IMG/VR virus record: IMGVR_UViG_3300034104_002622
Location: 1 to 64,000 of that record
From: a virus
Length of the DNA: 64,000 bases
Reading direction: 5' to 3' (one strand)
Part shown: one piece after another, positions 22,801-61,128 of the stretch
How positions within the stretch are numbered: the stretch's first letter is position 1
Layout: the number at the start of each line of letters is the position of its first letter
Notes under the pieces: model-generated
What the model was told of the DNA's origin: nothing
Seen by the model: the letters and a program-made list of their open reading frames with translations, nothing else
Databases searched by the model: none
Made by a program: the position numbers and the translations under genes

Positions 22801-25800
22801 GATTTAAATATGGCAGCTCCTGACTTCCGGAAAAACTTGCTTAAGCGCCTCCATGAAAGGGCTACTATTAATTCGACTGATTCACTCAATTACGATGGTG
22901 AGTCACTGATTGGTGTTCATAGGATTCTCTTTGGCAAGAGGCCTGACTACAAACCATTTGTTTCTACACGTATGAAAAGGCGTGAGATGTTGGAGGATTT
23001 AGAAGCCTTCCGTCTTGCACAAATGACCGAAGCTCAAGCTGATCGTCTTCAAGCAGAACAGCTAACGCCAGAGCAAGTTAAGTCGCTCAAGCTTCTTCGT
23101 GACGCTCAAGTGGAGTCAGCTATTGCGGCTGGTCAATATGAGCAGTATGGAAGCAGCGCATTCGTAGAAAGAGCAAGGCTGAGGGCTCGTCGTATGCGTT
23201 CTGAGGCAGGAGTGAACATGGAAGTGGCGAATCGCCTTTACCAAGATTACCTCACCTACACAAAAGCATTGGATGACTACAACAAGCTGGCTACTACAGC
23301 CATCCGTGAGATGATCGGTGAAGAGTCACTGGACACAAAAGGTTTTGGTATGAGTCATCAGGACTACAACTATAACATGGATGAGTTGGTAAGCCAAAAA
23401 CCAGAAAATGTAATTCAAGTTCAAAAGGATATGTTGGCACGGCGCAGAGGAAAGATGTTTTCCGAAGCTGAGTATGAAACAGTAACTCCAGTCCGCGCAG
23501 GATTACCAAAGGAACAATCTCATAGCATAGCTCATGGTTATCCTTATAAAGATGTAGCTTGGAACGTCGCCAATAAAGACAAATCAATGACTTTAATAAC
23601 GGTCACTCAAAGTGATCCTATTACTCCTTGGTTTCCAAAGAAAGAAGGTGATCAACCTCCCAGCGATTCATTCAAAGTCACTGCGCTTCCAACTTCTAGC
23701 AATCCTTTATTTAAAAGAGGAATTCTATCTAGTGCTGCTTTTCGTGGAAACATCAATGCAATGCAGTTTTTGCAAATGCTTGATCGTGGTATCACGGGAG
23801 ACACGGCTGAGCGCTACATGGCTACTTTGGGATACGTTTCTGAGGTTGTTGAAAACGAGGATTTTGATGACATCCAATACGAAAGTATTGATAGGATACT
23901 GCCTCGCTACGCAGTCTCTAGGCTTTATGCTTTTCAAAAGGAAGAACTTTATCTTGGTAGCAGTAACGGAAAAAACCGTGCCTTAGGAATTAAAGATTTG
24001 AACAAGACATTTGGATCTAATTTAGATAAAAATCATCCTGATTACAAAAACTCAATACAAAGTTTAATTGACTCAATTCGTGACTACGCTACAAAACTTA
24101 GTCGCTCCACTAATCCTGATCTTACGATTAATGATATTGATGGACTTCAGACTCTTGCGGGAAGAAGTGCTCCGGTTATTAACGATAGAGCTAGTGAGGT
24201 TCTAAAATATCTAGCTGAGTTTGAAGCTGAGGTAAATTCTATTTCATATGCAATTAGAACTGCTGGTGAAAAAGCAACCCGTAATGAGATGGTTGGATTT
24301 TCTTCTAGGCTTTTTGCTCTTTTTAACACTAAGACAAATAGCGCTTTTGAAAATCTTGATGTTGCTATTCGTTTAGCAAACGTAAGCTCTGAAATTGCAA
24401 GGCAGGAAGCCAACTCGTTTAAGCGCATTATTCCTAATGTAATCCGAGAAAAAACTAGAACGGCTCGTGACGCTGGTTATGCTTCTAGCGAACTCTTCAG
24501 AGAGACTCGTGACAGCATGATTGATCCGGTCACGTTGACAAACATGAAGTGGTGGATTAACCGTTTTGGTAAAGATTCTCTTGCTTCGGTTGGGGGAACG
24601 TGGGCTATTGATTTAATGGAGCGGGCTGGTCGGATTGGTTTTGGCACAGCTGGAGAAATGCTGGTTACTGATGCTGCATGGGTTTGGACTCAGGCTCCAG
24701 TGTTTGAGTTTGATTCAAACGGTGATGTTGTGATGGAGCCTTTGCTTGATGAAGACGGCAAGCCTGTCATGGAGTTTTACATTGAAGATGGTCTCCAGAA
24801 AATTCAGCCAGCCATGAAGTTCAAGGCTAAGCTTGATGAGTTTGGAGAGCCTCTTACGGAGCTTCGCCAAGTTCACATAGATATGAGCGATGATGACGCA
24901 ATTGCTTACTTGATTTCCGAAAAAGACAATGCTGGTCGTGCTCCTATAAGTAGCAATATGAATGAAATTGGCTCTTCCGTTAAAGATGCGAAGATCGGAC
25001 GTTCTAGTAGCGAATCAAAGCAGTCTCCTTACGAAAAAAGTTTGCGTCAGATGGATGTGGAGAGGCAGCTTCAAAAGAAGTTTATTACTGAGGCTGGTCT
25101 ATTGATCGGCTTGCGTATTGGTGTGGATAAGAGCGCTGACGATGCTCAAGATTTTTTGAATAGGCTTTTAGCTTTGGATAGTGATTCATCTAGTTATAAT
25201 GATGTCCTTCGGGATGGACTGTCTGGTTTGTTTGGTATTGATCCATCTAATGTTGGCGAACTGATTGGAAAATTCAAAGATTTCCAACAAGGGATTTTTG
25301 AAATTAAAAGCGCACCTATTACTTCAAGGACTGAAGAGTTTGTAACTCAGAAAAAATTAGACTTATTTTCTCCATCAGGAACAATTGCAGAAAATAGAAT
25401 TGATCCCTTCTCTTTTTTAATGGAGATGATTGAGTTCAAGTCTCGGTTTGAGCGTGATCTTATTGATGCTGCACGGGTTGGTTCTGTTGACTTAGAGACA
25501 GGTGAACTTATAAGTGGTGGAAGGGGAGACTTCCGGCTTACTGAAGCGCTTAGAACGCTTTCTAACCACGCTACAGCAGGAGGACAGAATCCTCAACTTC
25601 GTGATGATTTGGCCGCAATGAATGAATCAATGATTAGGAAGGGTCGTAAGACTCTTTTCTCTGAGGTGGGTTTAGCCCAGACTAATCAGGAAGAAGCCGC
25701 TGTGATCGCTAAAATGCTTCATGATGAAAGCTTAGGAAAGGGTGAGGTTTACCTGTATGACGCGAACACGTTTGCTAAGATGGGTGACCAAGGAATTATT

Positions 25801-28800
25801 TCAACTAACGAAACAATCAACCTTATTCTCCAAAACATCCCAGACGCAATCCTCTACAAACCAACCAAGCAAACAAAAGCCAAAAACGAAGCCTACTTTG
25901 GGACGCGGTTTTTTGTTCCTATGGATGGTTCTCCTCCGGTGATCTACGTGGGAGACACGAGCAATCAGGAGGACAACAGGGTTCTCATCGAGCAAGCGCT
26001 TGGTTATCTCACCCGCCAGAAGACCGCAGAGGCCGATTTGATCGCTCAGAGGCTTATTCAGACGGCTTCCAGCATCCGGCTGGCACTAAGTCCCATAACG
26101 CACCTAGAGGAGCTAATACGCGGCCTAGGAAACAAAGCTGATTCCATCGACAATTTTATCCGTCAATACACAGATGAGCTCGCCCTAGCTAATCCAGCCT
26201 CAATGGATGGTTTAGACGAGGCTAAAAAGGCTGAGTTAAGTGGAATGATCAGAGCCTACTTCATGAAGATGCAGGACATCGGATTGATCAACACCGCCCA
26301 AAAAGCGGAACTAAACAAGATCACCGCGCTTCTGAACGAGACATCCCCTGAAGACAGCCGGAATTCTTATTCCACAGAGCGCTCACTTCTCAGTGATTCT
26401 GACCAACGTGCAGTTGAAAGAGAAAGGGACTATATAAGGCTTATGGCGGCAGACCCAATCAATGATTCAATTTCTTTGATTGCTGAAGTTTGGAGCAATC
26501 CAGAAGCTAAACGACTGTTGGATCGTGTGATGATTGGGGATAACATCGTCAACACGCTCGACTCTCTTTCCGATCAAACCCTTGCCCGTGGCATTCAAGC
26601 CGTGAAGCAAATGGGTGAATCCAATCCAGAGGATCAGACAATCGCTGATCATTTTGATTCCGTTAATTCCCAAGAAGTGGCTCAGGACAACCTCAATGAA
26701 GAGGGTTCTGAGGACATCGACAACAGGGACGTTGACACATGGGCTGATGAGTATGACAAAGCCCTAGAGCAAGCTAGGAAAGAGGCTGGTGAGCAATCCG
26801 ATCTTGAGAAACCACAGGAGCTTTCTACTGAAGACAAGGAAAAGTTTCTTGCTCTTGTTCCATCGGCAAACAACATCCGTCGATTCTTCCGTGCTCGCTT
26901 GTTCGACAAGGCCGAGTTTGGCCCAATGGACGACAAGTTAGCTGCTATTGTTGAGGATTACTCCCAGAATGGGGGGTTGAGCCCAGCAGATGCGTTGCTC
27001 TTCAATACCTTGATGGATGTGGTGAGCGTTCAAAAGACGCTACAAGCTCCCGTTATTGTGGATAACAACAGCGATGTCACTCCGGGTCGTGAAATTCTTG
27101 GTGATCTTGGCACTCGTGATGGCGCAAATCCTATAGTTGGAAACAACGAGGGATCAAAATGGAGGGGTCGCCGTGGTGAGCGAGCTCCGTTTGTTGGGGC
27201 ATGGCACACGTTAATGACTGGAAGACAGAACGGAAGAACCGCTCCTACTCTTGTTTTTGAACGGAAACGCTATCAAAAGTTTGCTGGTGGATTTCTTGAT
27301 CGTGTTCCTTTTATTAATGAGATAATTCAGACTCAAGCTGAAAAATCAATTAATGAAGCTGTCGATAATTACAATGAAGCTAAGCATAAGAATTTGCCTA
27401 ATTTTATTTCTTATCCACGTGCATACGTTGACATCCCGCTAACTCAGGAGGTTTACGAGCAGATTGGTTCTTACCTGCCTACTGGCAAGCTTGCTGCGGC
27501 TGAGGCCGAAGTAAGGGAGAATATCCAGAAGATGTTTAAGTTGCGCGAGAACGCAGAGAGACAGCGGGATAAGGCCAAGGCTGTAATCGAGGAGTTTGAG
27601 AATCGGGCTCTGGAGAATCCATTGTTTGAGCGTATTCAGCAATGGCAATTCCAAGGAAACGTCCGTAGCATGATTGAGGCTCAAATCTTGGATGAGGCCT
27701 ACAATACAGCTTTGGAGGTTAAGTCTGCTGCTGGTGGGGATACAAGGCTTGAGAAACTGCTGAACACCTACGCTACAAAATCACGTTTTCAGAGTGATCG
27801 TTACAAAGAAGTTTTCAACGACATTCAACAGGATGCTATTCGCCTTCGTCAGTTGATTGCTAATGCTGATGCGCTGATTGAGGCAGAGCAAGAGGCTACT
27901 GGTGAGATTGTGAAAGATCGTGGGGTCGTTTACTACGCTGATCCAAAAATTTTTCTTCAGCAGAAATTATTGAATAGCAATATCCAGAAGCTCAATCAGA
28001 TCGTTAACAAGGACATGGAATCCGTATGGCGGCTTGTTATCGAGGATGACAATAACGCTAAGTCGGTATTCTCTGAGAACTCCAAGAAGTTCATCAAGAT
28101 TAATGAAGTGGAAGACCTTTTCAAATTTAGGTTTGGAATGCTTGAAGATGATTTAACGAGGATGTTTTCTCGTGATGGTTTGCGTAATGTGTTTCTTCGT
28201 CCGTTGGTTGAACAAGCGGTTGGCGGGTTTGGTCGGGAAACTTCTTCTCTTGCTTCCCGCGAGATGCAGATGCCGACGAAGACCACGGCTAAGAAAAAAT
28301 CGAAAGAGATTGAAGCAGTAAGGCTGCAAGCGAAGCGTCAACGCAGAAAGATGATTTCTCGCCTTGTCAATATGATTAAGCAGGGCAGCACACGTAATGA
28401 GATTAAAATGTATCTGACTCGTCAGCTTGAAGGTCGTTTTAACGCGCTAGAAAGTAATGCGAATAGTCCATTCAATGATTCTTTTCGCGCTATGCTGGAT
28501 GAGATTTCAATGCCTAGTGATGCGCTTGTTGAAATCCTTCGCTATGACGAAGGAGTTAAGAGTACGGAAGAAGCAGCAAGGCTTACAAAAGCAGAGAACG
28601 TCTTATTAAAAAGTGAGCGCTTACTGGCTCAGATGAACGACCCAAACGTCACAGTTAAATCTGGTGGATATTTTTCTCGTCTGGCTTTTAATAATACAAG
28701 CGATGCTCTCGCTGGTATCCACACTCACATCGGTAGCGATCAATCTTTAAATCCGCTTGGTGGTCGCCACAAAGTCCCTATCACCATGACGTTTGTCCCT

Positions 28801-31800
28801 GAGGACGCGTTAAGTCCAATGGTCACTGAGATGACCCGCAAGGATGAGCTTGCGGCCTACCGCTCTAAGTGGAACAAGGAGTTTAAGGATGCAGCTAATC
28901 CGTATGAGTTTTACATTAGGCAACAAGCTATCTCTCGCGCATTGAGCGACTACGCTGAAAAAGCTGACGTTCTGCACCGTGCAATTAAGCAACAAGAAAC
29001 CTATATCAACAACTACAACCCAGCAGCCATCATCCAACAAGTTACGGATACGATGGCTATTCAGGACAGGCTCTCACAAGAGCGGATTAACCGTATCAAA
29101 GCTGATTCTGAAGGAGTGAGCCATCATGCTGTTGCACCGGACGTAGTAGCCCTCTTAGCCGTCCCTGAAGAGCAGAGCTTCTACTCTGTGAGTAACGTGA
29201 AGGAACTCAACAAGCTCGCTGATAAGGCGAAGCAGAAAGGCCTTGAGTTATCGAAGGCTATTGATGAAGTGAAGGGTTACGAGACGCGGATTGCACAAGC
29301 AAAGAACAAAGGCCAATTCATGCAAGCCGACAAGCTTGGAGTTCTTTTAGTTAAGGCTAAAGCAAATAGGGATGGCATTGCCGACGATCTTAAGACCATT
29401 GGGAAACGTCGTGTGGCTCTTCGGGCTGCACGTAGGGTTTCTAGGCACACGATTCCAGAGAACATGAAAGAGCGCCGCGAGTTGGTTGCTCACCTTGTTA
29501 ATGATGGCGAATGGTTGCTTCTTGGTTCCATCACCGCAGCGCAGGACTTGAAGAACCGATTCGTAGTTCAGAGCGGGAAAGCCCAAAGTGGAGAGTCAAT
29601 GATGCGTGACATCGTATTGAGTTCCGTTCCTGAAGAAGATGAATCAGAAGACGGGACAGTTCACCTCCAGAACAGGATGGGCTTTACTTCCGTATACAGG
29701 AATGAAGCATGGACTCACACTGATTTCACATCTCCCGCTTGGAGTCTCGCTGCAAATTCAACCAGAGAAAGCGCATCAAAACAATTTGCTGCTCGCTATT
29801 CATCGAACGTAGTTGAACGAGCCAATAGAAGGCTGGCAGAAAGAAGGAATGATCCACTTGCTCGCGCTGGAGACGAAGACAGGAAGATTGACACGAACAA
29901 CACTTTCGTTAAAAAACAACTGGAGATGTTTGAGTTCTACGTTGAATCCATTGCTCTTGCCTATGACCGAAACACTTTGAGTGGGGAAACAAGGAAAAGG
30001 GTTTTTGATTTCCTGAAAACGCTAGCGGATGGAAAGATTGCCCAATCGAATGATGCTGCTGAGTCTGTCGATCTCATTGATCTTTATGCCTCGGTTGTTT
30101 CTGAGATTGAAGGACCGGAGGCTATGAAGCTGCTGATTGCTGGTATCGTGCCGCTGTCGGGACCTGCTCGCTTCTCAATGAAGGCTTTGCACCACCATGA
30201 GTCTAAGCTAAGAATGACGTTTATGAAGACCCATATTGCTCAGATGGAGGCCCGTAGGCTTCATGGATACCTTGAGCACGGCTTCGACCTGAAATCAGGA
30301 CGCAACACCCACACAAACGAATTCAACAAAGCAAAGGCAAAACTAGAAGAAAAGGCAAAGCTCTTAGGATTGGATTCTTTGCAGCAGTCAATTCCTTATG
30401 TGATTGCTAGTCTAAAGGGTTTGACTAAAACTAGATCGGCTTCTCTTGCTGGCAATCTTTCGATGTGGGCTAGTGATTTCCAAACAGGATCGCGTGATCT
30501 TAAGCAGTTGTTTGATTCTCAAAATGAATTAGCAGCGGGACAAAAGTTTGGGAAGATACGCAAGTATTTCACAGCGGAGCATGTGGATGTCATTCGTGAC
30601 TACGCAATGGTCAAAGAAGTGTATGAAACCATTCGCCCTATTTTGCGTGATGTTGGAACGAGCCCGTCTGGAACTGATAAGAACGCTCATGCTTTGGAAT
30701 TGATCAATAAAGCTATCGCTGCGCTAGAGGAAAAGATTCCAGCGAACTTGCAACAAGCATCCAAAGACTACTCTGACACTTTAGGAACAACTTTCAAAGG
30801 CTTATCGGATGCTTCTGAGTTGACATTGATTATGATGAGTCATCCTGATGCCACTCCAGATGAAGGACAGGCTTACCAGAAGTGGTTGCATGGAGGATTA
30901 AGAGGTGACGCTACGTTCGTGACTACAGTTCCTCTTCGCTACGGACACGCGGCCAATCCTAAGTCTATTGGTAAAAGTTTTGAACCCCGCCAATACAAGG
31001 AAGACCCATTAGAAGAGGTTGGCATGATGAGTCTTTCGCTTTTGGGTGGTCCGGGAAAACAAGCTAGAACTCGTAAAGATAACGAAGATGCTCAAACTTA
31101 CCGCCCAATCAATCTCAATGGGCTGTCTGGGACTATCGCTCTTTTGGATGATACTCTTTACCGCCTTAACGTAACTCCTACCTACTCTATTCTCAGGAAG
31201 ATTGTAGGAAAGGAGGAAGTGAATCAGCGGAATCAGGGTGAGGTTGTTGGATCAAAGGTGATGGCTAAGCTTGGTGATTCTCCCGAAGGTGAAATAGCTA
31301 GGAAGTGGCGTGTGGCGCTTGGTGCAATCTCGGAAGAAATGGACATCAAGGTTGCTAACGACATGAAGTTTGGAGTGGCGAACACTGCTTTCTCTGAAAC
31401 CCTCAATTACCTTTCATCGTTGATGATGGTTAGGTCGTTGTTTTCTTTCCAGCAGTTCTGGAACCAATCTGGTCCATCAGTATTGGGATACATTGTGAAA
31501 AAGTCTGTGACGGGGAATTACAAGGATGCTATTCAGATGGTTCGCCTACTATCTAAGATTATCGCTTCAAAAGCTGGAGGTGATTCTCAATTTAACGACG
31601 AAGCTAAGCAGTTTGTAGCGAATGTTGCTACTTGGGTAAACTTCCGTGGTGCTGATGGCATTGATAAGCTTGACCAACTTCGCAGGAAGCAAGTCAGGCA
31701 TGGCGCTGGGCTTGGTAAAAAATGGTCAGGATATGCTCTTAATCAGATTACCAACCTTGGAGAAAAGTCTCTTGACTTTAGTATAGCTAAAGTTGAGCGG

Positions 31801-32904
31801 GCTTTATCTCGCTCTATTTTCATTACTGAATTGTTAGCTGAACTTCGATGGATGGAAAAGAACGGACAAATTGAAAAGGCTCCAAAGGACGAAATGGAAT
31901 TGATTGGCAGGAAGGATTTTAAAAACATTCCCATGGAAGCTGTTCAATACGCTGAGGCGAAAGTGAGCGATCACATGGGGGTTGCTGACCAAGCCAAGAA
32001 AGCAATGCCTTTCCAAAATCTCACTAGGTCTCCTTCGTGGAATGCCTTGATCCGCACCATATCTAGGTTCTCTAATCACCAAGCCTCCACTTCAAGCGGT
32101 ATGGCTGCTATGCTGCCGATGATCTGGAAGGCTGAGACAGGAGAGGATGGTAAGCTCACAATTGGTGGTCAGAGAGCGAGACAAGAAGCCATCGAGAACA
32201 TTACGGGAACGGTAATCCAAAACAGCTTGTTCCACATTATGAAGCTCAAGGTGCTTGTTCCAATTGTTTTGTCGGTGATTTACGGAATGGGTGACGACGA
32301 TGACGAGGAAGCTCAAGTTAGGGCTCAGGAGATGGCCGACAAATTAATGGCCCCGGACGAAGAGGGTAATCCAATAGTCAATGCGGCCAAAGCGGTGATT
32401 TTTGGAAAGCAGTCCCAATTTTTCAGGGACGAAAAAACACCCGAGGCTGCGGCGGCTTCGGCATATGCTTCGCTAGGATCGAGCATTGTGTCTGAAATAA
32501 TCCCTATGGCTCACCCGCTAACTGCGGCATTTGGGTTTTATCCTGCGCATTTTGCGTTTAAGGCAGCGATTACGAACCAGTTGATTCAAGATGCTACAGC
32601 AAAAATGACTGGATTAGATTCAGCACAAAGCAGATGGGAAGATGATGCGGTTTACATTTACGAGCGAGAAGAAGGTGGGGTGCAGACTGCTATGGGCATG
32701 ACTGCTCCTAGTTCTGTTGTTTACGACTTGGGTGCTGCGGCCGCATTATCAACAGAAGCTGCTTTCGCAGAAGAATCTAATGTCTTAGACATTATTGCTT
32801 ACATGATAAGCGAAGTCGTTCCGGTTACTCGTGAACTTCGCGGAAGGTTGAAGCAGAAGGTTGAAGAGTCTGTCTGGGAACAGCGTTCAGAAGATAATCG
32901 TTAG
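16843..32904 (+). CDS. Giant (5353 aa) internal virion / DNA-ejection polyvalent-type protein
   Basis: Uninterrupted 16-kb ORF; G/A-rich membrane-like N-terminal region; zincin HEMGH...E motif; last gene of the structural operon. Confidence 0.75.
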   Translation: MNFDNYDYGSNTDQLQEDQPIKAPVEFDFTDALGIVKADKWVGANQTRRIATVDKAFEKIVEQAESDKSRKIKWNRLGGNKELVEMPLFHSDGSWTSQGKEWLGQQRNYLEAAANDETGGMVVNPLSGEFEIASHLAPLLGRKQKQFDPFKDFDDIKQDVESEVVDGKPRDFTYEAFLERVNQGKDPDSPSAIDPDNKAMREQFESRKRLNDFDPSTMGNTPFLMKEGVPIFNPKMLNEPTKIESAIETSELSVADKKMALINFRDTYNKLGAGIVNEVSDADDMQMHKMPLNAIADIFGVDRNNISKRFRDHMAQEGGKGSLYTFIKENEAEFSGEQFGWADKLNNAFWNANRSTGGGALWLLTAGQNKGVNQFLSDSARSSDSAFEGMGGVENYRVLGMDFTNKGMYDMAGQVASMLATGGASLALKGGIKAAGTVAGATAGSLVPKAGVLGAAAKGVMASDEAILAATKALAPNTAKNLTIKALRDPSAYIGGLQASGMSFGSTFNQVMEETGDYDLATKKANIEGISSGLSAFIATSVFNRIAPGAEKMMTGVEGSLSGSIASRIAFAKASGSSATRKATIKAFEDLATDEVTRKLLSKGMAEAADKAAKQAGLKGFGPAAGVVSEFFEESTDTALNDVISAVLDDSKTWTDTVWDNIGEKFSEYMAAGVMGAFGGAMGESVGGLTSFSKASREQRAKAVKEHAFAKWETIKGNIDSFGESEIADKDGKFRPIAEFLAWDGATSEEKSKALVNAARERTGLQISLEGRAVAPVVAKPPEAVEKPKEGASIMDDLFESRPKDENGNDMEWQEAKITYGPEHKLVLGGKEVTMQQVDLPRDEGVGALITDADGKKTHISAAKAKKMLEESKPLKKGLRVGASPEMKQRAAMLERFSADSNPAQYAKKNETSKQSTTVDADNKQIAPPSETRSRDSAPPQDDGDSGIAGDGGAKQTRQSDIGAPTSTTLIPAAQKLLDEKVSEERLIELASWKKESGSLDPSNEQKTLNQIAAKAVLKSQGKWDDANNSPLAQTKSETPAPVSTEAAPEVKDTEEDPPFRPVNDPEEIAYRKNKTIAWAKNTESERGSNVGRKTIFEKIAALFDSSPKTGNKEEVLERLKKFGAMGHVSGWLNEDAIREDYRSGLKYIRGEVADSKGSEQKKLLFERMGITPDEFLSFINDHGGEEAYVEFIKAHEMGHIASGHRGQKTINQGDLLDDQHMGWETEANHWALETLGFYEWRKQQPNKPNEKQTENQGDEAKGPQVGKIHRPANSNGLTGDIVAKFAKDGNSIIVADNETAANNEIKRQGLEGRPVLVVNAATASNRAAVEDAIEDFQSGDKQLGSEVESNTPAMVDPLMEDPTAPKFFADISSLDTEDKFGGKWYKSGDTYTYTPTQGKVLPIGLNSVVAIDGEPDAVLLLVGEKDGVYEFRKVDYKVMAKTLGEDFKGYGKFSKDWNDNRLKEAGRHIEAHLDKLFSGKLSEKEFDSMLRKIMAVVAPGVRLESIAFEKLENGEFFVARRTTPKDGDGNATGLAQTKIVLDRQAFMANLAKVFRGYRTGQDAFYNKLVGNEVARQLAAHVDEELTHVVGMKEFKDIEVIGLFDELVALSRKGKQKFISSVFNQIAARRVKGKTLDSFTEDEKYMVGAETLRALNQILTTGSWTEEQTNDAKRLLFALNEDAAEAKGPLKTVIELLRRYMLKIRRMLHMRLLMGQLPPNLQAMLKRQETAYVRANLFGDVDMIKDKNAQEKMEMARESLLSSRKMIGKVAMKNTGALVELKRIVKTLNLNIEDIIEIDYRNGTIRLIDDSKKAFNGMSFQDLIKRYEPDVNLEDINKALSELEMEGSVFAIMQDLGLAYRALEAARNLTPDLLPILDDSYGLSVSEGDEEGATRSDKEDAAETEKYRVMQMLVAAAPAFDNGSAFIKRKMAEVDSLAKNDSLVLSQMNLDVIAVVAELDLGVANDAIKLSRIAEMVKYSPGQEVMDLNMAAPDFRKNLLKRLHERATINSTDSLNYDGESLIGVHRILFGKRPDYKPFVSTRMKRREMLEDLEAFRLAQMTEAQADRLQAEQLTPEQVKSLKLLRDAQVESAIAAGQYEQYGSSAFVERARLRARRMRSEAGVNMEVANRLYQDYLTYTKALDDYNKLATTAIREMIGEESLDTKGFGMSHQDYNYNMDELVSQKPENVIQVQKDMLARRRGKMFSEAEYETVTPVRAGLPKEQSHSIAHGYPYKDVAWNVANKDKSMTLITVTQSDPITPWFPKKEGDQPPSDSFKVTALPTSSNPLFKRGILSSAAFRGNINAMQFLQMLDRGITGDTAERYMATLGYVSEVVENEDFDDIQYESIDRILPRYAVSRLYAFQKEELYLGSSNGKNRALGIKDLNKTFGSNLDKNHPDYKNSIQSLIDSIRDYATKLSRSTNPDLTINDIDGLQTLAGRSAPVINDRASEVLKYLAEFEAEVNSISYAIRTAGEKATRNEMVGFSSRLFALFNTKTNSAFENLDVAIRLANVSSEIARQEANSFKRIIPNVIREKTRTARDAGYASSELFRETRDSMIDPVTLTNMKWWINRFGKDSLASVGGTWAIDLMERAGRIGFGTAGEMLVTDAAWVWTQAPVFEFDSNGDVVMEPLLDEDGKPVMEFYIEDGLQKIQPAMKFKAKLDEFGEPLTELRQVHIDMSDDDAIAYLISEKDNAGRAPISSNMNEIGSSVKDAKIGRSSSESKQSPYEKSLRQMDVERQLQKKFITEAGLLIGLRIGVDKSADDAQDFLNRLLALDSDSSSYNDVLRDGLSGLFGIDPSNVGELIGKFKDFQQGIFEIKSAPITSRTEEFVTQKKLDLFSPSGTIAENRIDPFSFLMEMIEFKSRFERDLIDAARVGSVDLETGELISGGRGDFRLTEALRTLSNHATAGGQNPQLRDDLAAMNESMIRKGRKTLFSEVGLAQTNQEEAAVIAKMLHDESLGKGEVYLYDANTFAKMGDQGIISTNETINLILQNIPDAILYKPTKQTKAKNEAYFGTRFFVPMDGSPPVIYVGDTSNQEDNRVLIEQALGYLTRQKTAEADLIAQRLIQTASSIRLALSPITHLEELIRGLGNKADSIDNFIRQYTDELALANPASMDGLDEAKKAELSGMIRAYFMKMQDIGLINTAQKAELNKITALLNETSPEDSRNSYSTERSLLSDSDQRAVERERDYIRLMAADPINDSISLIAEVWSNPEAKRLLDRVMIGDNIVNTLDSLSDQTLARGIQAVKQMGESNPEDQTIADHFDSVNSQEVAQDNLNEEGSEDIDNRDVDTWADEYDKALEQARKEAGEQSDLEKPQELSTEDKEKFLALVPSANNIRRFFRARLFDKAEFGPMDDKLAAIVEDYSQNGGLSPADALLFNTLMDVVSVQKTLQAPVIVDNNSDVTPGREILGDLGTRDGANPIVGNNEGSKWRGRRGERAPFVGAWHTLMTGRQNGRTAPTLVFERKRYQKFAGGFLDRVPFINEIIQTQAEKSINEAVDNYNEAKHKNLPNFISYPRAYVDIPLTQEVYEQIGSYLPTGKLAAAEAEVRENIQKMFKLRENAERQRDKAKAVIEEFENRALENPLFERIQQWQFQGNVRSMIEAQILDEAYNTALEVKSAAGGDTRLEKLLNTYATKSRFQSDRYKEVFNDIQQDAIRLRQLIANADALIEAEQEATGEIVKDRGVVYYADPKIFLQQKLLNSNIQKLNQIVNKDMESVWRLVIEDDNNAKSVFSENSKKFIKINEVEDLFKFRFGMLEDDLTRMFSRDGLRNVFLRPLVEQAVGGFGRETSSLASREMQMPTKTTAKKKSKEIEAVRLQAKRQRRKMISRLVNMIKQGSTRNEIKMYLTRQLEGRFNALESNANSPFNDSFRAMLDEISMPSDALVEILRYDEGVKSTEEAARLTKAENVLLKSERLLAQMNDPNVTVKSGGYFSRLAFNNTSDALAGIHTHIGSDQSLNPLGGRHKVPITMTFVPEDALSPMVTEMTRKDELAAYRSKWNKEFKDAANPYEFYIRQQAISRALSDYAEKADVLHRAIKQQETYINNYNPAAIIQQVTDTMAIQDRLSQERINRIKADSEGVSHHAVAPDVVALLAVPEEQSFYSVSNVKELNKLADKAKQKGLELSKAIDEVKGYETRIAQAKNKGQFMQADKLGVLLVKAKANRDGIADDLKTIGKRRVALRAARRVSRHTIPENMKERRELVAHLVNDGEWLLLGSITAAQDLKNRFVVQSGKAQSGESMMRDIVLSSVPEEDESEDGTVHLQNRMGFTSVYRNEAWTHTDFTSPAWSLAANSTRESASKQFAARYSSNVVERANRRLAERRNDPLARAGDEDRKIDTNNTFVKKQLEMFEFYVESIALAYDRNTLSGETRKRVFDFLKTLADGKIAQSNDAAESVDLIDLYASVVSEIEGPEAMKLLIAGIVPLSGPARFSMKALHHHESKLRMTFMKTHIAQMEARRLHGYLEHGFDLKSGRNTHTNEFNKAKAKLEEKAKLLGLDSLQQSIPYVIASLKGLTKTRSASLAGNLSMWASDFQTGSRDLKQLFDSQNELAAGQKFGKIRKYFTAEHVDVIRDYAMVKEVYETIRPILRDVGTSPSGTDKNAHALELINKAIAALEEKIPANLQQASKDYSDTLGTTFKGLSDASELTLIMMSHPDATPDEGQAYQKWLHGGLRGDATFVTTVPLRYGHAANPKSIGKSFEPRQYKEDPLEEVGMMSLSLLGGPGKQARTRKDNEDAQTYRPINLNGLSGTIALLDDTLYRLNVTPTYSILRKIVGKEEVNQRNQGEVVGSKVMAKLGDSPEGEIARKWRVALGAISEEMDIKVANDMKFGVANTAFSETLNYLSSLMMVRSLFSFQQFWNQSGPSVLGYIVKKSVTGNYKDAIQMVRLLSKIIASKAGGDSQFNDEAKQFVANVATWVNFRGADGIDKLDQLRRKQVRHGAGLGKKWSGYALNQITNLGEKSLDFSIAKVERALSRSIFITELLAELRWMEKNGQIEKAPKDEMELIGRKDFKNIPMEAVQYAEAKVSDHMGVADQAKKAMPFQNLTRSPSWNALIRTISRFSNHQASTSSGMAAMLPMIWKAETGEDGKLTIGGQRARQEAIENITGTVIQNSLFHIMKLKVLVPIVLSVIYGMGDDDDEEAQVRAQEMADKLMAPDEEGNPIVNAAKAVIFGKQSQFFRDEKTPEAAAASAYASLGSSIVSEIIPMAHPLTAAFGFYPAHFAFKAAITNQLIQDATAKMTGLDSAQSRWEDDAVYIYEREEGGVQTAMGMTAPSSVVYDLGAAAALSTEAAFAEESNVLDIIAYMISEVVPVTRELRGRLKQKVEESVWEQRSEDNR

Positions 32905-43974: not shown

Positions 43975-43984
43975 GACTAAATAA

Positions 43985-44390
43985 AAAGTGAAGCCAGTTA
44001 CCGTATCTGGCGCTAGCTTGACGCTACTAGCGGTTTCATAAATACCACATATTTCAGAGGGTTTCTTAGTTTATGCTTAAGGCAACGTCTTTCCGTTGTG
44101 TCACTATTTTACCAGCTTTTGTCAATTGTTTTGACGCATTTTCGGACTACTGGTTTCCGAGCCGTGCCTTCCGTCTCGTTGCGGCTATGCGCTTCCGTTT
44201 ATGATCCCAAGGGAGCTTATACAGGGACGACGCAGAAATTGTCCAGCTTACCGTTTACTGGGACGGCATTACGCTCCGTCGGTTCCGTTTCAATCCTTGG
44301 AGCACCATGCAACTCTAGGTATTTATCCGTATTCTCGTTTTACCGTAGTCTCTTGGTTCTATCTGCTGCACGGTTAACACAACAGCAAGA
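43985..44390 (-). ncRNA. Candidate structured ncRNA with repeated ACGG(A/T) motifs
   Basis: No credible ORF; 10 ACGG copies on the - strand, several in hairpin loops; ends in a stem plus U-tract. Confidence 0.55.
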
Positions 44391-44392
44391 GA

Positions 44393-49284: not shown

Positions 49285-49331
49285 TGTGATTTTAGCGTTG
49301 ACAAATTTTTTGATTGCTTTAGGTAGCGCTC

Positions 49332-49574
49332 ATGGAAAAGAGATTCAAGAAAGTAATCACTAACCCTGCGACTGGTCGCAAGAAAACTGTGAAGTTTGGA
49401 CAGGCTGGCAAGGCTGCTGACGGTGGGGATCGCATCAGGCCGGGAACTTCTAAGGGTGACGCTTATTGCGCTCGCTCTGCTAAGATTAAAGGTGATTGGA
49501 AGTCCAATCCTAATTCGCCTAACAACCTTTCACGCCGGAAATGGAAGTGCAAAGGCAGCAAGTCTATGAAGTAA
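49332..49574 (+). CDS. Small basic phage protein
   Basis: VKFGQ...PGTSKGDAYCARS...SRRKWKC, a widespread aquatic-phage family. Confidence 0.75.
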   Translation: MEKRFKKVITNPATGRKKTVKFGQAGKAADGGDRIRPGTSKGDAYCARSAKIKGDWKSNPNSPNNLSRRKWKCKGSKSMK

Positions 49575-49600
49575 TTGCTTTCTGAATCAGAAACAGCTTT

Positions 49601-49777
49601 ATGAAAAAAAAATCTACTGTCAACTCTTCTGGTAACTACACAAAGCCTACCATGAGAAAAGCCTTGTTTAATCGCATTAAAGCTGGCACGAAAGGCGGTG
49701 ATCCCGGCGAGTGGAGCGCCAGAAAAGCTCAGCTTTTAGCTTCTGAGTATAAGAAAAAAGGCGGAGGCTACAAATAA
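49601..49777 (+). CDS. Small basic protein (58 aa; below ORF-track cutoff)
   Basis: NYTKPTMRK...GGDPGEWSARKAQLLASEYKKKGGGYK. Confidence 0.8.
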   Translation: MKKKSTVNSSGNYTKPTMRKALFNRIKAGTKGGDPGEWSARKAQLLASEYKKKGGGYK

Positions 49778-49810
49778 CAACTCTCATTAAACGTAAACTA
49801 AAATAAAAAT

Positions 49811-49972
49811 ATGAAAGCAAAACCAAAGAAAGCAATGGTGTCTCCTAAGTCTAAAAAAGCAATGTCCAAGCCAATGTTAAAAGCAGCGGCTTCGAAAAAG
49901 ATGGCCAAGAAAATGCCTAAGAGTATGGCAATGGGCATGAAGATGGGAATGCCTAGCAATATGGGATATTAA
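49811..49972 (+). CDS. Lys/Met-rich basic peptide (53 aa)
   Basis: MKAKPKKAMVSPKSKKAMSKPM... after an A-rich leader. Confidence 0.65.
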   Translation: MKAKPKKAMVSPKSKKAMSKPMLKAAASKKMAKKMPKSMAMGMKMGMPSNMGY

Positions 49973-49987
49973 TCCTATTTTGATTGA

Positions 49988-50218
49988 ATGAAAGCACCTC
50001 AACAATCCTTGAAAGATTGGACAGCCCAAAAATGGCGAACCTCTGATGGTAAGCCAAGCAAGGGCAAAAAGAGGTATTTGCCTGATTCTGCGTGGAAGTC
50101 TTTGACGGCTTCTGAAAAGGCTTCCACGAATCGGGCAAAGGCTAAGGGTAATGCTCAAGGCAAGCAGTTTGTTAAGCAACCTAAGTCGATAGCTAGAAAA
50201 ACATCAGCACACAGATGA
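49988..50218 (+). CDS. Small basic protein (DUF5872-like, tentative)
   Basis: SLKDWTAQKWRT...RYLP...GKQFVKQPK. Confidence 0.7.
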   Translation: MKAPQQSLKDWTAQKWRTSDGKPSKGKKRYLPDSAWKSLTASEKASTNRAKAKGNAQGKQFVKQPKSIARKTSAHR

Positions 50219-50847
50219 GAAACGCCAACCTACCAAAGTGTCGAGTTTACGTCCGTTGTGATGCCTTTGGTGGCAGTGAGACAGAGTTTGAACCTGCGTG
50301 GTTAGTCAGCGTCCGAGCGATGCGTAATCGTCCATTTTGTTTTCAAGTTTGGGTAGATAAATACGCTGCTTGCTTTGACAAGATTCCGCCACAGTGCATC
50401 TACCATTACGAGCCGGATGGGAATCAAGCTAACTTACCGCTTCACAAGGTGCAAATGTGGGAGTGTTTATCTGGCAGCATTGAAGTCTGGCAGAAGAGTC
50501 AGCTTTGCGATGTGCCGATGCTTGTCAACATGGGTAAGGGTTTTGCTCCGATGACTGGGCATTACTGGTTTACGATTGATTTTTTACCCGAACATCAATG
50601 TGCAGGAATACTGGACATTGGTGACGTTGAGTTGCTGGAAGAGCACAAAGAGGGAAACGTGGTAAAGTTGTCGAACGGACAGATTGCCATCTACCCAAAT
50701 AATAGGCTTAAATGGTTGCCTATAAGCCTTGTGAAAGAAGGCGCGGCAGAACGCATCCCTAGCTGGGAGGTTGCCACAAACGAGCAATGGGACGACTGGT
50801 GGCAAGACTCATCAGAAATCCTCGGAGACTCCAAGTGGGCTTACTAA
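50215..50847 (+). CDS. Conserved phage hypothetical protein
   Basis: 210 aa; YWFTIDF...EHK...NGQIAIYPNNR. Confidence 0.75.
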   Translation: MRNANLPKCRVYVRCDAFGGSETEFEPAWLVSVRAMRNRPFCFQVWVDKYAACFDKIPPQCIYHYEPDGNQANLPLHKVQMWECLSGSIEVWQKSQLCDVPMLVNMGKGFAPMTGHYWFTIDFLPEHQCAGILDIGDVELLEEHKEGNVVKLSNGQIAIYPNNRLKWLPISLVKEGAAERIPSWEVATNEQWDDWWQDSSEILGDSKWAY

Positions 50848-58386: not shown

Positions 58387-58842
58387 TTATTTGGAAAGAG
58401 TTTTTACGAAAGCTTCTGCGCGTTGCGCGGCGGTTGCGTCAAGTAAAGTTTCTGCATCCCATTCGTTACGATTTACTTTTCGCTTTTTTATTATGTTGGC
58501 TAAGTGGTCGTTAAAAATACTTCGGAAGCTCCAGTCCATTTCCCAAAGCACTTTTTCCGCTTCGTGCATCGCGTTGAGGTCGCTGAGGTAGTCGGGTAAG
58601 TTTTCTACAACGAAGCATTTTTCTTCTTTGCGAAAAAGCAGGGTTTTAACTGGTTCGTATCCTCCTTGGTAACTATTAAGGGAGGCGTTCCACGTTGGGA
58701 CATCGGCGTATTCACGAGTCCACCCACACGCTTCTGCTATGGCTATTCTGATCGCAGATTTGCTGTTTTGCTGGTCGATCTCTTGCTGGAGTTTGTGCTC
58801 TTTGGCCAGACCCATATCATCTTCTTCGGGGAATCCGTTCAT
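58387..58842 (-). CDS. Conserved phage protein, paralog of 56449-56811
   Basis: RIAIAEACGW...LPDYLSDLNAMHEAEK...ATAAQRAEAF. Confidence 0.75.
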   Translation of the reverse strand: MNGFPEEDDMGLAKEHKLQQEIDQQNSKSAIRIAIAEACGWTREYADVPTWNASLNSYQGGYEPVKTLLFRKEEKCFVVENLPDYLSDLNAMHEAEKVLWEMDWSFRSIFNDHLANIIKKRKVNRNEWDAETLLDATAAQRAEAFVKTLSK

Positions 58843-58991
58843 GGTTGGTAGTCTTGGTGTATTTTTGTGTCGTGATCAAAAGATTCGTAGATTTCTTTTT
58901 TTATTGATTGAATTAATAGTTTTGTATCTTCAATCATTAGTTGCAGTATTAGTATTAGCATTCCTGTTAATGCGAATGTTAGAGTTATCAT
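58839..58991 (-). CDS. 50-aa membrane peptide
   Basis: MITLTFALTGMLILILQLM...; TGA overlaps the next ATG. Confidence 0.55.
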   Translation of the reverse strand: MITLTFALTGMLILILQLMIEDTKLLIQSIKKEIYESFDHDTKIHQDYQP

Positions 58992-59049
58992 ATTATATTG
59001 TTTTGGGAAAGCGTCTCCCCTAGAAATTCTTTATTTAGCCGAGGCTAAA

Positions 59050-59880
59050 AACCCAGTAACTAGGGAATTCGAATTGCTAGAGGAGACATTTACACACACA
59101 CTGAGAAAGTGATTGCCACTGGAGGTAGAGGGCGAGCTACTTGCGCCTCACTCATTCGTTCCATCTCCAGCGGCAAATTGATTGCTTCGCCCATGTTCTA
59201 GTTAGCATGGCTCAACCTGAGGCTTAGTGACTGCTGCTAAAGTCTACTTATTGCCTACGAAGCAAAGGGGTTTTGGTTGTACAAGTTACGTCTCCAAGAG
59301 TGGGATTGCACCATCTAGTATTCACTGGCATACGCCCTTACTGTTTTCACTTTACAACCAAAATTCATTACGTTTTTGAAAGTGGCAGTCTTTGTCAGCA
59401 ATTGGCGTGTGGAGACGCCTACGTTTTACACAGCAACCAAAGAGCTTATCATACTCATTTGGCTCTTTGCACCCGCTCCGTATCGTGATTACCGGATGCT
59501 GACTCACTGACAAAGACCTTTAGATAGCAGCTTACGGCTGCAAGTCGTAACGACTATGCTCAAACGGTCGTTAAGCGTCAGTGTGGGAGGAGTATTTTCT
59601 GCGTGGCTGCGAGGGCGCATACTCCATGGATATTTCTCACTCTTTAGCCATGACCTCATTTAAGCACCACATCTCAACCTTTGGTCAGGTCGCTCACGTA
59701 TCAGACCTCTGCCTACATGCTGTGACTGATAGCTAATCAGTTTGCCAAGGTGGGTTGAATGGGGCTGGCAAGTGTTCTTTTTTACCCTAAGTAAGATCGT
59801 CAGGTCATGCCCTCACTGCAAAGGCTGAAATGTGGTGACTGCTTACGCCAGTCAATCGAAGTGATGTTTTTTGTAGGCTC
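59050..59880 (-). ncRNA. Large highly structured ncRNA candidate (~830 nt)
   Basis: No credible ORF; many 7-12 bp helices, GNRA loops and G-U pairs on the - strand; a long-range pseudoknot. Confidence 0.75.
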
Positions 59881-59900
59881 ACTTATTTATCCCAGATTGT

Positions 59901-60113
59901 TTAGAACAAAGTGTTTGGAGCAAATTTGAATTTATGCCATCCAGCTTTGTGCTTTTCTTGCGCAAGTGCTTTGCGTTCTTTGTGATCTTGCAACATGGCT
60001 TGATGTTTTTCATGCCTGTCTTGACATTTTTGCGGTGTTTCTTTTGCTTTGAATTGCGGAGTCCATTTTGTTATGAATTCGATTTTATCGCTGTATTTTA
60101 CTGGGTTTGTCAT
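59901..60113 (-). CDS. Hypothetical basic protein
   Basis: 70-aa ORF. Confidence 0.55.
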   Translation of the reverse strand: MTNPVKYSDKIEFITKWTPQFKAKETPQKCQDRHEKHQAMLQDHKERKALAQEKHKAGWHKFKFAPNTLF

Positions 60114-60148
60114 GATTGAGTTGGTTAAAAAAAGTGGAGATGGGAGAG

Positions 60149-60688
60149 TTACCTATTGGTAAGAGTTCTGTATTTTCCGGTTTTTGACAATTGGTAAGAT
60201 AGTGATGAAGGGCTAATTCCGTATTTTAATTTTAGTTTTTTGTATCCGAGTCCAGCTTTGTGATCTGCTCGAACTTCCGCCCATGTTTCATCTGTGTGAC
60301 GGCTTGCTGATCTTGATGCTTTTTGTGCGTGAAGTCTTCTTTCTTTTGGGCATCTATCCATTGCATTTTCCGATCCTGTTCCTAAGCGGATGTTTTGAGG
60401 AGTGTTATTTAGGGAGTTCCCATCAAGATGTCTTGTGTGTATGGAATTTTTTAAAGCATCTTCGCCAAATAGCTGAAAAGCTAGTAGTCGATGCACTTTT
60501 ACTGGGTAGCGTTTGGAATTACCTATTCCTACGTTGAAAACATAATACGGGATTGGGTTTTGTCCTGTTCCTGATTTTGTGATTTGTAGTTTTCGGGTTT
60601 TTCCTATTGCATTGCATACACTTCCATCATTCATTACTCGATAGCCTTTCTTGAACGCTATTCTGATTGCTTCTTTTGTTTTAGACAT
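60149..60688 (-). CDS. Free-standing HNH homing endonuclease
   Basis: VHRLLA...RHLDGNSLNN...N...N plus C-terminal HTH; likely start MSKTKE. Confidence 0.85.
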   Translation of the reverse strand: MSKTKEAIRIAFKKGYRVMNDGSVCNAIGKTRKLQITKSGTGQNPIPYYVFNVGIGNSKRYPVKVHRLLAFQLFGEDALKNSIHTRHLDGNSLNNTPQNIRLGTGSENAMDRCPKERRLHAQKASRSASRHTDETWAEVRADHKAGLGYKKLKLKYGISPSSLSYQLSKTGKYRTLTNR

Positions 60689-60736
60689 GTTCAAACTTAC
60701 TTGATTAAGGGTTTGATGCAAGTCTTAATTTGGAAC

Positions 60737-61128
60737 TGGAGCTGGCGGGAGTCGAACCCGCGTCCACAACACTGTTAAATACATTTTCTACAAGCTTAGT
60801 CCTTTCGGACATTGGGGACGCTGGTTAGGCGACCTTCCACCACTCAGTTTTTACGCCGCTGAGTTGCGTTGTTTGCCTTACTGTTTCAGGTCATCCGCCC
60901 GAAGGCACGGCGTAGGATGATCTTACCCGGTTTGTTTCCCTTCGTAGAGCGAGCGTTTCGGAGGGCGTGTTTTGCTTAGGCTACGAGAGCAACTGTGTTG
61001 CTTCCGAAGTTTCCGCGAATGACGTTGTTGCCATTTGTTTGTTTTGAGCGGCTTATTAAAGAGGCCAGCCGATCAACCTCTACTTGCTTATGTATCCTAT
61101 CGCGTTGTGTCGAAACCATTACAGCCCC
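60737..61128 (-). ncRNA. ssrA: tmRNA (392 nt), tag (A)GNNVIRGNFGSNTVALVA
   Basis: 5' GGGGCTGTAATGGTTTCGAC; 3' GGACGCGGGTTCGACTCCCGCCAGCTCCA with G3-U70 acceptor pair; tag ORF 61032-60976; CCA not encoded. Confidence 0.95.

Follow-up and report, generated by a model that had tools for sequence, protein, structure and literature searches.

The DNA analyzed here (the window) comprised the first 64 kb, positions 1 to 64,000, of the virus record IMGVR_UViG_3300034104_002622, which is 73,283 bp long and was rated 100% complete by CheckV. Its positions 59666-59856 on the minus strand, called the module below, are predicted by sequence comparison to encode a genuine compact structured RNA of a new family absent from Rfam 15. 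The overall reading, to which a probability of roughly 70% was given, is a new family of structured phage RNAs of ~190 nucleotides (nt), carried as one copy per genome by a small group of lake-water phages and separate from the adjoining non-coding tail. A preliminary description of the region had proposed a single ornate non-coding RNA of ~830 nt near a transfer-messenger RNA (tmRNA) gene. A structured non-coding RNA in the vicinity of the tmRNA gene (60734-61128, minus strand) was borne out by the module and its covariation. As to the length, support was obtained for ~190 nt (59666-59856), and the other ~600 nt had no homologs beyond a sibling contig.

Relatives, fold and covariation of the module

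The minus strand of 59000-59900 was searched by nhmmer against 82 loci obtained through two neighbouring proteins. The sibling contig was matched at full length, and two other phage contigs were matched only at query positions ~50-239, corresponding to window positions ~59662-59851. Further copies were collected by exact-pattern scans with conserved words over IMG/VR and metagenome contigs, and a covariance search added one shorter variant, L073. The module is now known in 17 distinct phage or metagenome sequences including the window, and the sources were lake or freshwater wherever labelled, with the exception of L095, a marine metagenome assembly by its title. The family was represented by a 16-sequence alignment (A1), a model-fitted alignment with L073 added (A2) and a covariance model (R1). 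In the window R1 gave a single match (177 bits, E 1e-48, model positions 1-193), and the module was single-copy in all five whole viral records, four of which were rated complete. No match was obtained by blastn with 59000-59900 in the GenBank phage collection. The homolog search suggested in the preliminary description thus returned relatives and covariation for ~190 nt, and for the tail nothing beyond the sibling.

Several groups of candidate relatives were rejected. The pattern ACCTTGGC..CACAGCATGT recovered 30 new loci in viral contigs, all of them coincidences in coding sequence with 0 R1 matches, and the core pattern found five matches in a genome-contig collection, again all coincidences in coding-looking sequence. 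Nine of 19 metagenome loci matched by pattern alone were coincidences by eye, L103/L110 and L105 were doubtful, and R1 gave no match.

The module folds into seven helices over ~190 nt, and 69 of the 190 aligned positions of the window copy were invariant. The fold begins with a leader hairpin (P0), to which an 18-bp closing helix (P1) is joined; inward from P1 come a short helix with a G-G mismatch (P1b), an invariant asymmetric AGCGA loop, P2 and a branched apical three-way domain made of P3-P6. On the minus strand of the window, P0 (59837-59853, GACUG/CAGUC with the loop GCGUAAG) directly abuts P1, whose 5' strand (59819-59836) and 3' strand (59666-59683) form an inverted repeat with covariation. 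The limits of sequence conservation among homologs coincided precisely with the ends of P0 and P1, the latter being the 3' end of the closing helix. The 3' strand of P1b and the AGCGA internal loop are contained in UGAGCGACCUG (59684-59694), which was invariant in all 16 sequences and also found in L073. P2 and the apical domain (P3/P3a and P4-P5-P6) occupy 59695-59809 and include the invariant words CACAGCAUGU, CCUUGGC and GCCAG. All elements of the lower part, namely the P0 hairpin, the 18-bp P1, P1b with its G-G mismatch, the invariant UGAGCGACCUG and P2, were seen in the window copy. P1 (59666-59683/59819-59836), the helix that is conserved elsewhere, had been missing from the helices listed in the preliminary description. 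A hairpin at the P0 site was present in every lineage with a different sequence each time, and its loop contained GUAA or GCAA in six of eight lineages. A word resembling AAACCCGC was common to L089, L090, L100 and L102 at 10-30 nt upstream of P0 and was absent from the window; it might be a phage promoter.

For A1, RNAalifold predicted a consensus of 53 pairs, and compensatory change was seen at 21. In an independent count on A1, 96.9% of 845 base-pair cells were able to pair, and the observed value was reached on none of five measures by any of 500 column shuffles. When the 3' partners were slid by 1-3 columns as a control, pairing was 34-47% and compensatory pairs numbered 2-6. Compensatory change was found in 28 of the 53 pairs on A2, and within the helix containing P1 the covarying pairs were 8 of 23 on A1 and 15 of 23 on A2. 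P3, P3a and P6 covaried as well. Some of the exchanges were extensive: GGGG/CCCC was replaced by GAAG/CUUC in L091, the P6 stem CCGAU/AUCGG by CAAGC/ACUUG in the same sequence, and the outer helix was completely rewritten in L091, with a CC/GG to UU/AA change in the window lineage. A single-column covariation scan for pseudoknots gave a signal dominated by lineage effects. Read from the invariant bases alone, tertiary pairings GCCA/UGGC and GCU/AGC may be formed.

The strand was fixed by the G-U pairs. There were 103 G-U cells in A1, some positions being G-U in 15 or 16 of the 16 sequences, and the opposite strand was able to pair in only 86.3% of cells. These results placed the RNA on the minus strand, which is the gene strand in this part of the window.

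Comparison with known RNAs was made with the 4227 models of Rfam 15, among which GOLLD and ROOL are presumably included. The window was scanned with cmscan at gathering scores, and positions 58800-60200 were scanned at E up to 10. At gathering scores the tmRNA was the only match in the window. At E up to 10, 58800-60200 gave three chance-level matches to unrelated families, and three other members of the module family gave none on the module. All Rfam matches besides tmRNA were below gathering scores (E at least 0.57) and lay off the module or belonged to unrelated families. This was the comparison advised in the preliminary description, which had been unable to match the region to GOLLD or ROOL by eye and had allowed for a possibly new class, a view that agrees with the outcome. 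Since no Rfam model matched, the module is not a GOLLD, ROOL, OLE, group I/II intron, RNase P RNA, 6S, pRNA, Y RNA, ribozyme or riboswitch family member. It was rated as a new RNA family among the structured orphan RNAs found in RNA-gene islands of phages.

GOLLD is an orphan phage RNA of ~800 nt, discovered in lake metagenomes and often close to tRNA genes; ROOL, likewise a large orphan RNA, occurs in phages and prophages near tRNA loci. Together with manA they are phage-borne orphan RNAs with complex folds and unexpected architectures. The module shares with GOLLD the carriage by phages, the lake source and the neighbours of tRNA type; however, its conserved unit is ~190 nt instead of ~800 nt and no sequence or architectural correspondence was found. 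Its size and helix layout are likewise unrelated to those of ROOL, and no Rfam match linked the two. A neighbourhood of tRNA type was seen in the window, G002, G004 and L073, a feature which is common to many RNAs and does not define membership of GOLLD or ROOL. 6S RNA is similar in length and has a long closing stem, with a central bubble and a terminal stem; the module differs by its branched apical domain, and no 6S match was obtained at E up to 10.

Candidate structured RNAs supported by covariation have been reported from intergenic regions of IMG/VR, with lengths of 29-151 nt (Fremin et al. 2023, PMC10690425). The data source and the type of evidence are the same as here, but the module measures 190 nt. 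Given this range, the whole module cannot be among these candidates, and a fragment of it might be. Within the portions of the literature accessible on phage tmRNA with structured RNAs and on GOLLD or ROOL with tmRNA, no description of the element was found.

Mini variant, genomic context and possible mode of action

The shorter variant L073 (positions 67-200) matched R1 with 47 bits (E 5e-11). It retains P0, P1, P1b, UGAGCGACCUG with the AGCGA loop, and P2, with a U-A to C-G exchange in P1b, and a 24-nt hairpin replaces the 84 model positions of P3-P6. Because the closing-stem motif (P1b/AGCGA/P2) is conserved in L073 without the apical domain, we infer that function would centre on this conserved motif and that the apical domain would be exchangeable. 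For the same reason the motif is probably a protein-binding site.

A conserved stem under a swappable apical domain would resemble the design of Y RNAs and of the phi29 pRNA. The YrlA-type Y RNA has a conserved protein-binding closing stem with an internal loop, a variable apical module and a tRNA-like link. In the module, P1b/AGCGA/P2 is conserved in the same manner and L073 carries a different apical part; in contrast to YrlA, the module lacks a tRNA-like T-arm, as neither ARAGORN nor Rfam gave a tRNA-like match on it. The phi29 pRNA, ~170 nt long, is a trans-acting protein-bound scaffold whose ends form a long closing helix below a three-way junction. The module is similar to it in size, closing helix and three-way domain, but nothing was found that ties the module to packaging. 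By analogy with these RNAs, the module would be produced early in infection and act in trans as a stable stand-alone RNA, the closing-stem motif would bind a host or phage protein, and the apical domain would serve as an exchangeable effector part. Such a trans-acting protein-binding RNA was favoured over the other modes of action considered, although with the odds still against it.

Genes around the relatives were compared in several lineages. In G002, a distant syntenic relative of the window (38-55% amino-acid identity in shared proteins), the tmRNA ends 25 nt before P0 with no gene between. The order of tmRNA and module is the same in the window, but an HNH endonuclease gene and a small open reading frame (ORF) of 70 codons, ORF70, intervene. 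A tRNA lies ~300 nt downstream of the module in G004, and in L073 a tRNA follows the mini variant by 109 nt and is itself followed by a strong 12-bp hairpin with a U-run. Thus the module and genes of tRNA type form an "RNA gene island" in several lineages. Judged by motifs in the ORFs, the module precedes a DNA polymerase A gene in L084 and L100 and follows a primase-helicase in L085; in the other sequences its downstream neighbours are small ORFs. The tRNA of L073 (309-398) scored only 33 bits, with a 34-nt insert against 18 in the model and an odd anticodon call (att); the hairpin with the U-run after it occupies L073:460-513. In G002, the ~800 nt that separate the tmRNA from the homolog of the 150-aa gene (L157:8517-9320) held just one doubtful ORF of 132 aa.

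A role as a cis-acting leader controlling the next gene, as a riboswitch or protein-responsive element, would suit the position of the module on the gene strand, the distances of ~30 nt in L084 and 266 nt in L100 to the DNA polymerase A gene that follows it, and the many invariant unpaired bases, as in ligand pockets. However, what lies downstream varies, being ~600 nt of non-coding sequence in the window and a tRNA in L073. The 18-bp helix, P1b and P2 lock both ends with no overlapping terminator/anti-terminator alternative, and conservation reaches to the end of P1 and no further. A leader function was therefore judged very unlikely. Since P1 is extended by P1b and P2 (18+5+6 bp), no expression platform is present and the downstream genes are variable, the module would be a stable trans-acting RNA and not a riboswitch.

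A self-cleaving or otherwise catalytic RNA processing a polycistronic early transcript, or tmRNA and tRNA precursors, was given a similarly small chance. The absence of the apical domain and of most invariant loops from L073 speaks against it, as an active site in the apical domain is hard to reconcile with a variant that lacks this whole domain. The module is also bigger than most self-cleaving classes, and no Rfam ribozyme family was matched. On the other side stand the complex fold with ~70 invariant positions, the tmRNA or tRNA genes adjoining the module in four of the lineages examined, and the frequent occurrence of known small ribozymes in the RNA regions of phages. A broader proposal regards the conserved fold as a new functional RNA class of phage tRNA/tmRNA islands, catalytic or handling tRNA and tmRNA, in which the lineage tail extends the RNA to an ornate ~810 nt on the scale of GOLLD and ROOL and the invariant words GCCA and UGGC and the loops CACAGCAUGU and AGCGA would be the active or binding site; it was held to be distinctly unlikely.

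As a compact and well-defined orphan phage RNA, the module is small enough at ~190 nt for direct biochemistry, and the natural mini variant pinpoints the conserved stem-loop core. If the module binds a host factor or handles RNAs of tRNA type, it would represent a new phage route to tamper with translation or RNA metabolism. The narrow family of lake phages limits the immediate reach of the finding.

The remaining ~600 nt and the limits of the element

The tail (59065-59665) is a lineage-specific non-coding sequence with many perfect inverted repeats. Its sole homolog was the sibling contig, 98-99% identical. No other relative appeared among all loci retrieved (nhmmer, blastn and tblastx), in five whole viral records (BLAST), where the syntenic G001 and G002 were without the tail, or in two back-translated ORF scans of IMG/VR. 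A tblastx match in L008 (E 0.001) was rejected, being antisense within a 314-aa ORF of another phage. A diverged copy of the module was likewise rejected as the origin of the tail: R1 with filters off gave at most 6.8 bits, and the local alignment score was reached by 89-470 of 500 shuffles.

Tail and module lie together in 58843-59900, 1058 nt in which the coding strand has no ORF of at least 60 aa; this is the largest such gap in the window, the next measuring 592 nt, and ORFs of that size cover 91% of the window. In 59040-59900 every one of the six frames was interrupted by 12-27 stops, with all three stop codons represented, and no open run was longer than 85 codons. The claim of the preliminary description that the region has no credible ORF in a gene-dense genome was confirmed by these stops and by the size of the gap. 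A/T and G/C skews were balanced across the gap, the tail being like the module, and differed in the flanking genes. At the far end, 59052-59064 on the minus strand forms a weak terminator-like hairpin (5-bp stem with three G-C pairs) followed by TTTTT (59047-59064 in all). A consensus scan found six terminator-like sites in the region against 3.8 expected, so that this site is not evidence by itself. The tail may be co-transcribed with the module up to this site.

An uninterrupted gap, balanced skews over its whole length and a minus-strand terminator-like site at its end are what would be expected of one large ornate RNA of ~810 nt, running from ~59860 to ~59050 on the minus strand and similar in kind to GOLLD or ROOL, with the module as its 5' core and the tail as further domains. 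L073, too, has ~260 nt of non-coding sequence after the module and ahead of a strong terminator, although a tRNA lies inside this sequence. The surplus of long local helices in the tail points in the same direction. Local perfect inverted repeats of at least 8 bp numbered six in 59040-59665 (shuffle mean 1.33; six reached by 6 of 1000 shuffles), and two were of at least 11 bp (0 of 1000 shuffles). Among 19 control windows of the same size there were 0-4 repeats, and only one window had a repeat of at least 10 bp.

The individual helices named in the preliminary description were largely found as proposed. Those at 59271-59281/59353-59363 and 59388-59398/59507-59517 are perfect 11-bp inverted repeats by repeat search, and 59438-59445/59462-59469 is a perfect one of 8 bp. 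The helix 59113-59124/59165-59176 has 11 Watson-Crick pairs and one A-C, equal to G-U on the minus strand, and 59548-59554/59567-59573 and 59589-59595/59619-59625 have 7 bp each as read from the sequence. An 8-nt pairing put forward as a pseudoknot does exist as a repeat, with true coordinates 59289-59296/59410-59417, off by one from those first given; the 8-mer has, however, a second perfect partner at 59011-59018 and is situated within a local hairpin at 59404-59419. The 8-bp repeat 59649-59656/59802-59809, described as enclosing a multibranch domain, is also present, but it does not belong to the conserved fold and crosses P1. In this lineage only, the 5' strand of P2 (59802-59809) is perfectly complementary over 8 bp to the start of the tail (59649-59656). 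Formation of this pairing would be at the expense of P2, already weakened in this lineage by two mismatches.

In folding energy the whole region stood out only slightly, with z -2.0 for the minus strand and z -1.7 for the plus strand. The tail gave z -2.7 to -2.9 in our own shuffles and -1.97 in 20 shuffles, and 59380-59525 on the minus strand reached z -3.5, values which favour a large RNA; yet one of six coding control folds also reached z -3.2. The gap of ~400 nt after the module in G002 folded no better than its shuffles (z -0.47).

Natural variation was limited. In public lake metagenome runs dated 2016-2024 the region occurred in two haplotypes only, differing at the same 13 sites, and the four DNA runs examined contained these two known haplotypes and no new variants. 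Nine of the 13 sites fall in the tail. In the minimum free energy (MFE) structure of the minus strand, three of six substitutions at paired sites keep pairing and three break it; in that of the plus strand four of five keep pairing and one breaks it. Among the helices of the preliminary description, the substitution at 59279 speaks for the minus strand and those at 59390 and 59569 for the plus strand, with 59125/59126 ambiguous. The 11-bp helices are strand-neutral because they are perfect Watson-Crick. Taken with the sibling as the only homolog of the tail in all collections searched, the absence of the tail from G001 and G002, the poor folding of the gap in G002 and the lack of an Rfam match, these data made a single large RNA an unlikely explanation.

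The tail may instead be an element that works as DNA (protein-binding inverted repeats, origin-like, or a recombination scar) or decaying sequence that arrived with the neighbouring mobile HNH cassette, with the module alone functional; this was put somewhat short of even odds. It agrees with the restriction of the tail to one lineage, with long repeats that are perfect Watson-Crick palindromic arms without G-U, with substitutions showing no strand preference for pairing, and with a mosaic neighbourhood (no differences in the HNH gene, heavy differences in ORF70 and the tmRNA, and a 340-nt insertion or deletion in the 151-aa gene). Neither iterons nor an A+T-rich block were present, direct repeats were few and short, and no remnant of a protein gene was found, the one weak tblastx match (E 0.001) being that rejected above. 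An excess of inverted repeats is also unusual for junk, and the tail was unchanged in the lake metagenomes of 2016-2024 apart from the two haplotypes. The probability left for the tail falls to a separate RNA on either strand.

Returning to the reading of the module as a ~190-nt RNA family with a separate tail, several observations weigh against it or narrow it. All 24 of the 24 sequencing runs listed with this DNA were recorded as DNA and none as RNA. The family is narrow, with an effective sequence number of 1.3 in cmbuild, and the covariation came from ~8 lineages, mostly L091, L073, the window lineage and L084/L092. The helix containing P5 was invariant with 0 of 6 pairs covarying, P4 had just one of three, and the window copy has mismatches in each of P2, P4 and P5. 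This reading does not account for the surplus of inverted repeats found in the tail. G001 and G003 have the module without any tmRNA, so that the link to tmRNA is frequent and not obligatory. The Ro/TROVE domain (PF05731), relevant to the likeness with Y RNAs, was found in none of the five phage records including that of the window; the same search detected it in the control genomes of D. radiodurans and B. thetaiotaomicron.

Gene neighbourhood

From ~33 kb onward the genes of the window lie on the minus strand, and the module is placed in the early/replication gene block on the same strand. The gene order on the minus strand is a 587-aa gene, a 150-aa gene, the tmRNA, the HNH gene, ORF70, the ORF-free gap, a 50-aa ORF and a 151-aa gene. 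The 587-aa and 150-aa genes upstream of the tmRNA belong to no known family. The tmRNA gene (60734-61128), upstream of the module, was matched by the Rfam tmRNA model with 137 bits and by ARAGORN with a tag peptide. Between it and the module lies the HNH endonuclease gene (60149-60721; PHROG HNH families E 6e-17, Pfam HNH_3), and ORF70 (59901-60113, 70 aa, no family) is immediately upstream of the module. Past the gap, coding restarts on the minus strand with the 50-aa ORF (58839-58991), which has a hydrophobic N-terminus.

Between the haplotypes of the window and the sibling, the HNH gene had 0 differences, and ORF70 contained a 99-nt patch (60026-60124) with 29 differences. The sibling tmRNA had a 50-nt deletion and two small insertions (window 60800-60930). 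This mosaic around the HNH gene fits recombination at a mobile endonuclease. In addition, ~340 extra bases of the sibling within the 151-aa gene (window ~58583) lead to two tandem genes of the family where the window has one; this family is widespread in phages, with 572 relatives in IMG/VR.

An ORF of 5353 aa on the plus strand (16843-32904) exceeded every other gene of the phage in size by a wide margin. Other gaps of 400-600 nt without a coding-strand ORF were located at 49285-49876, 50180-50583 and 43975-44392. They gave no Rfam match and might hold other RNAs or small genes.

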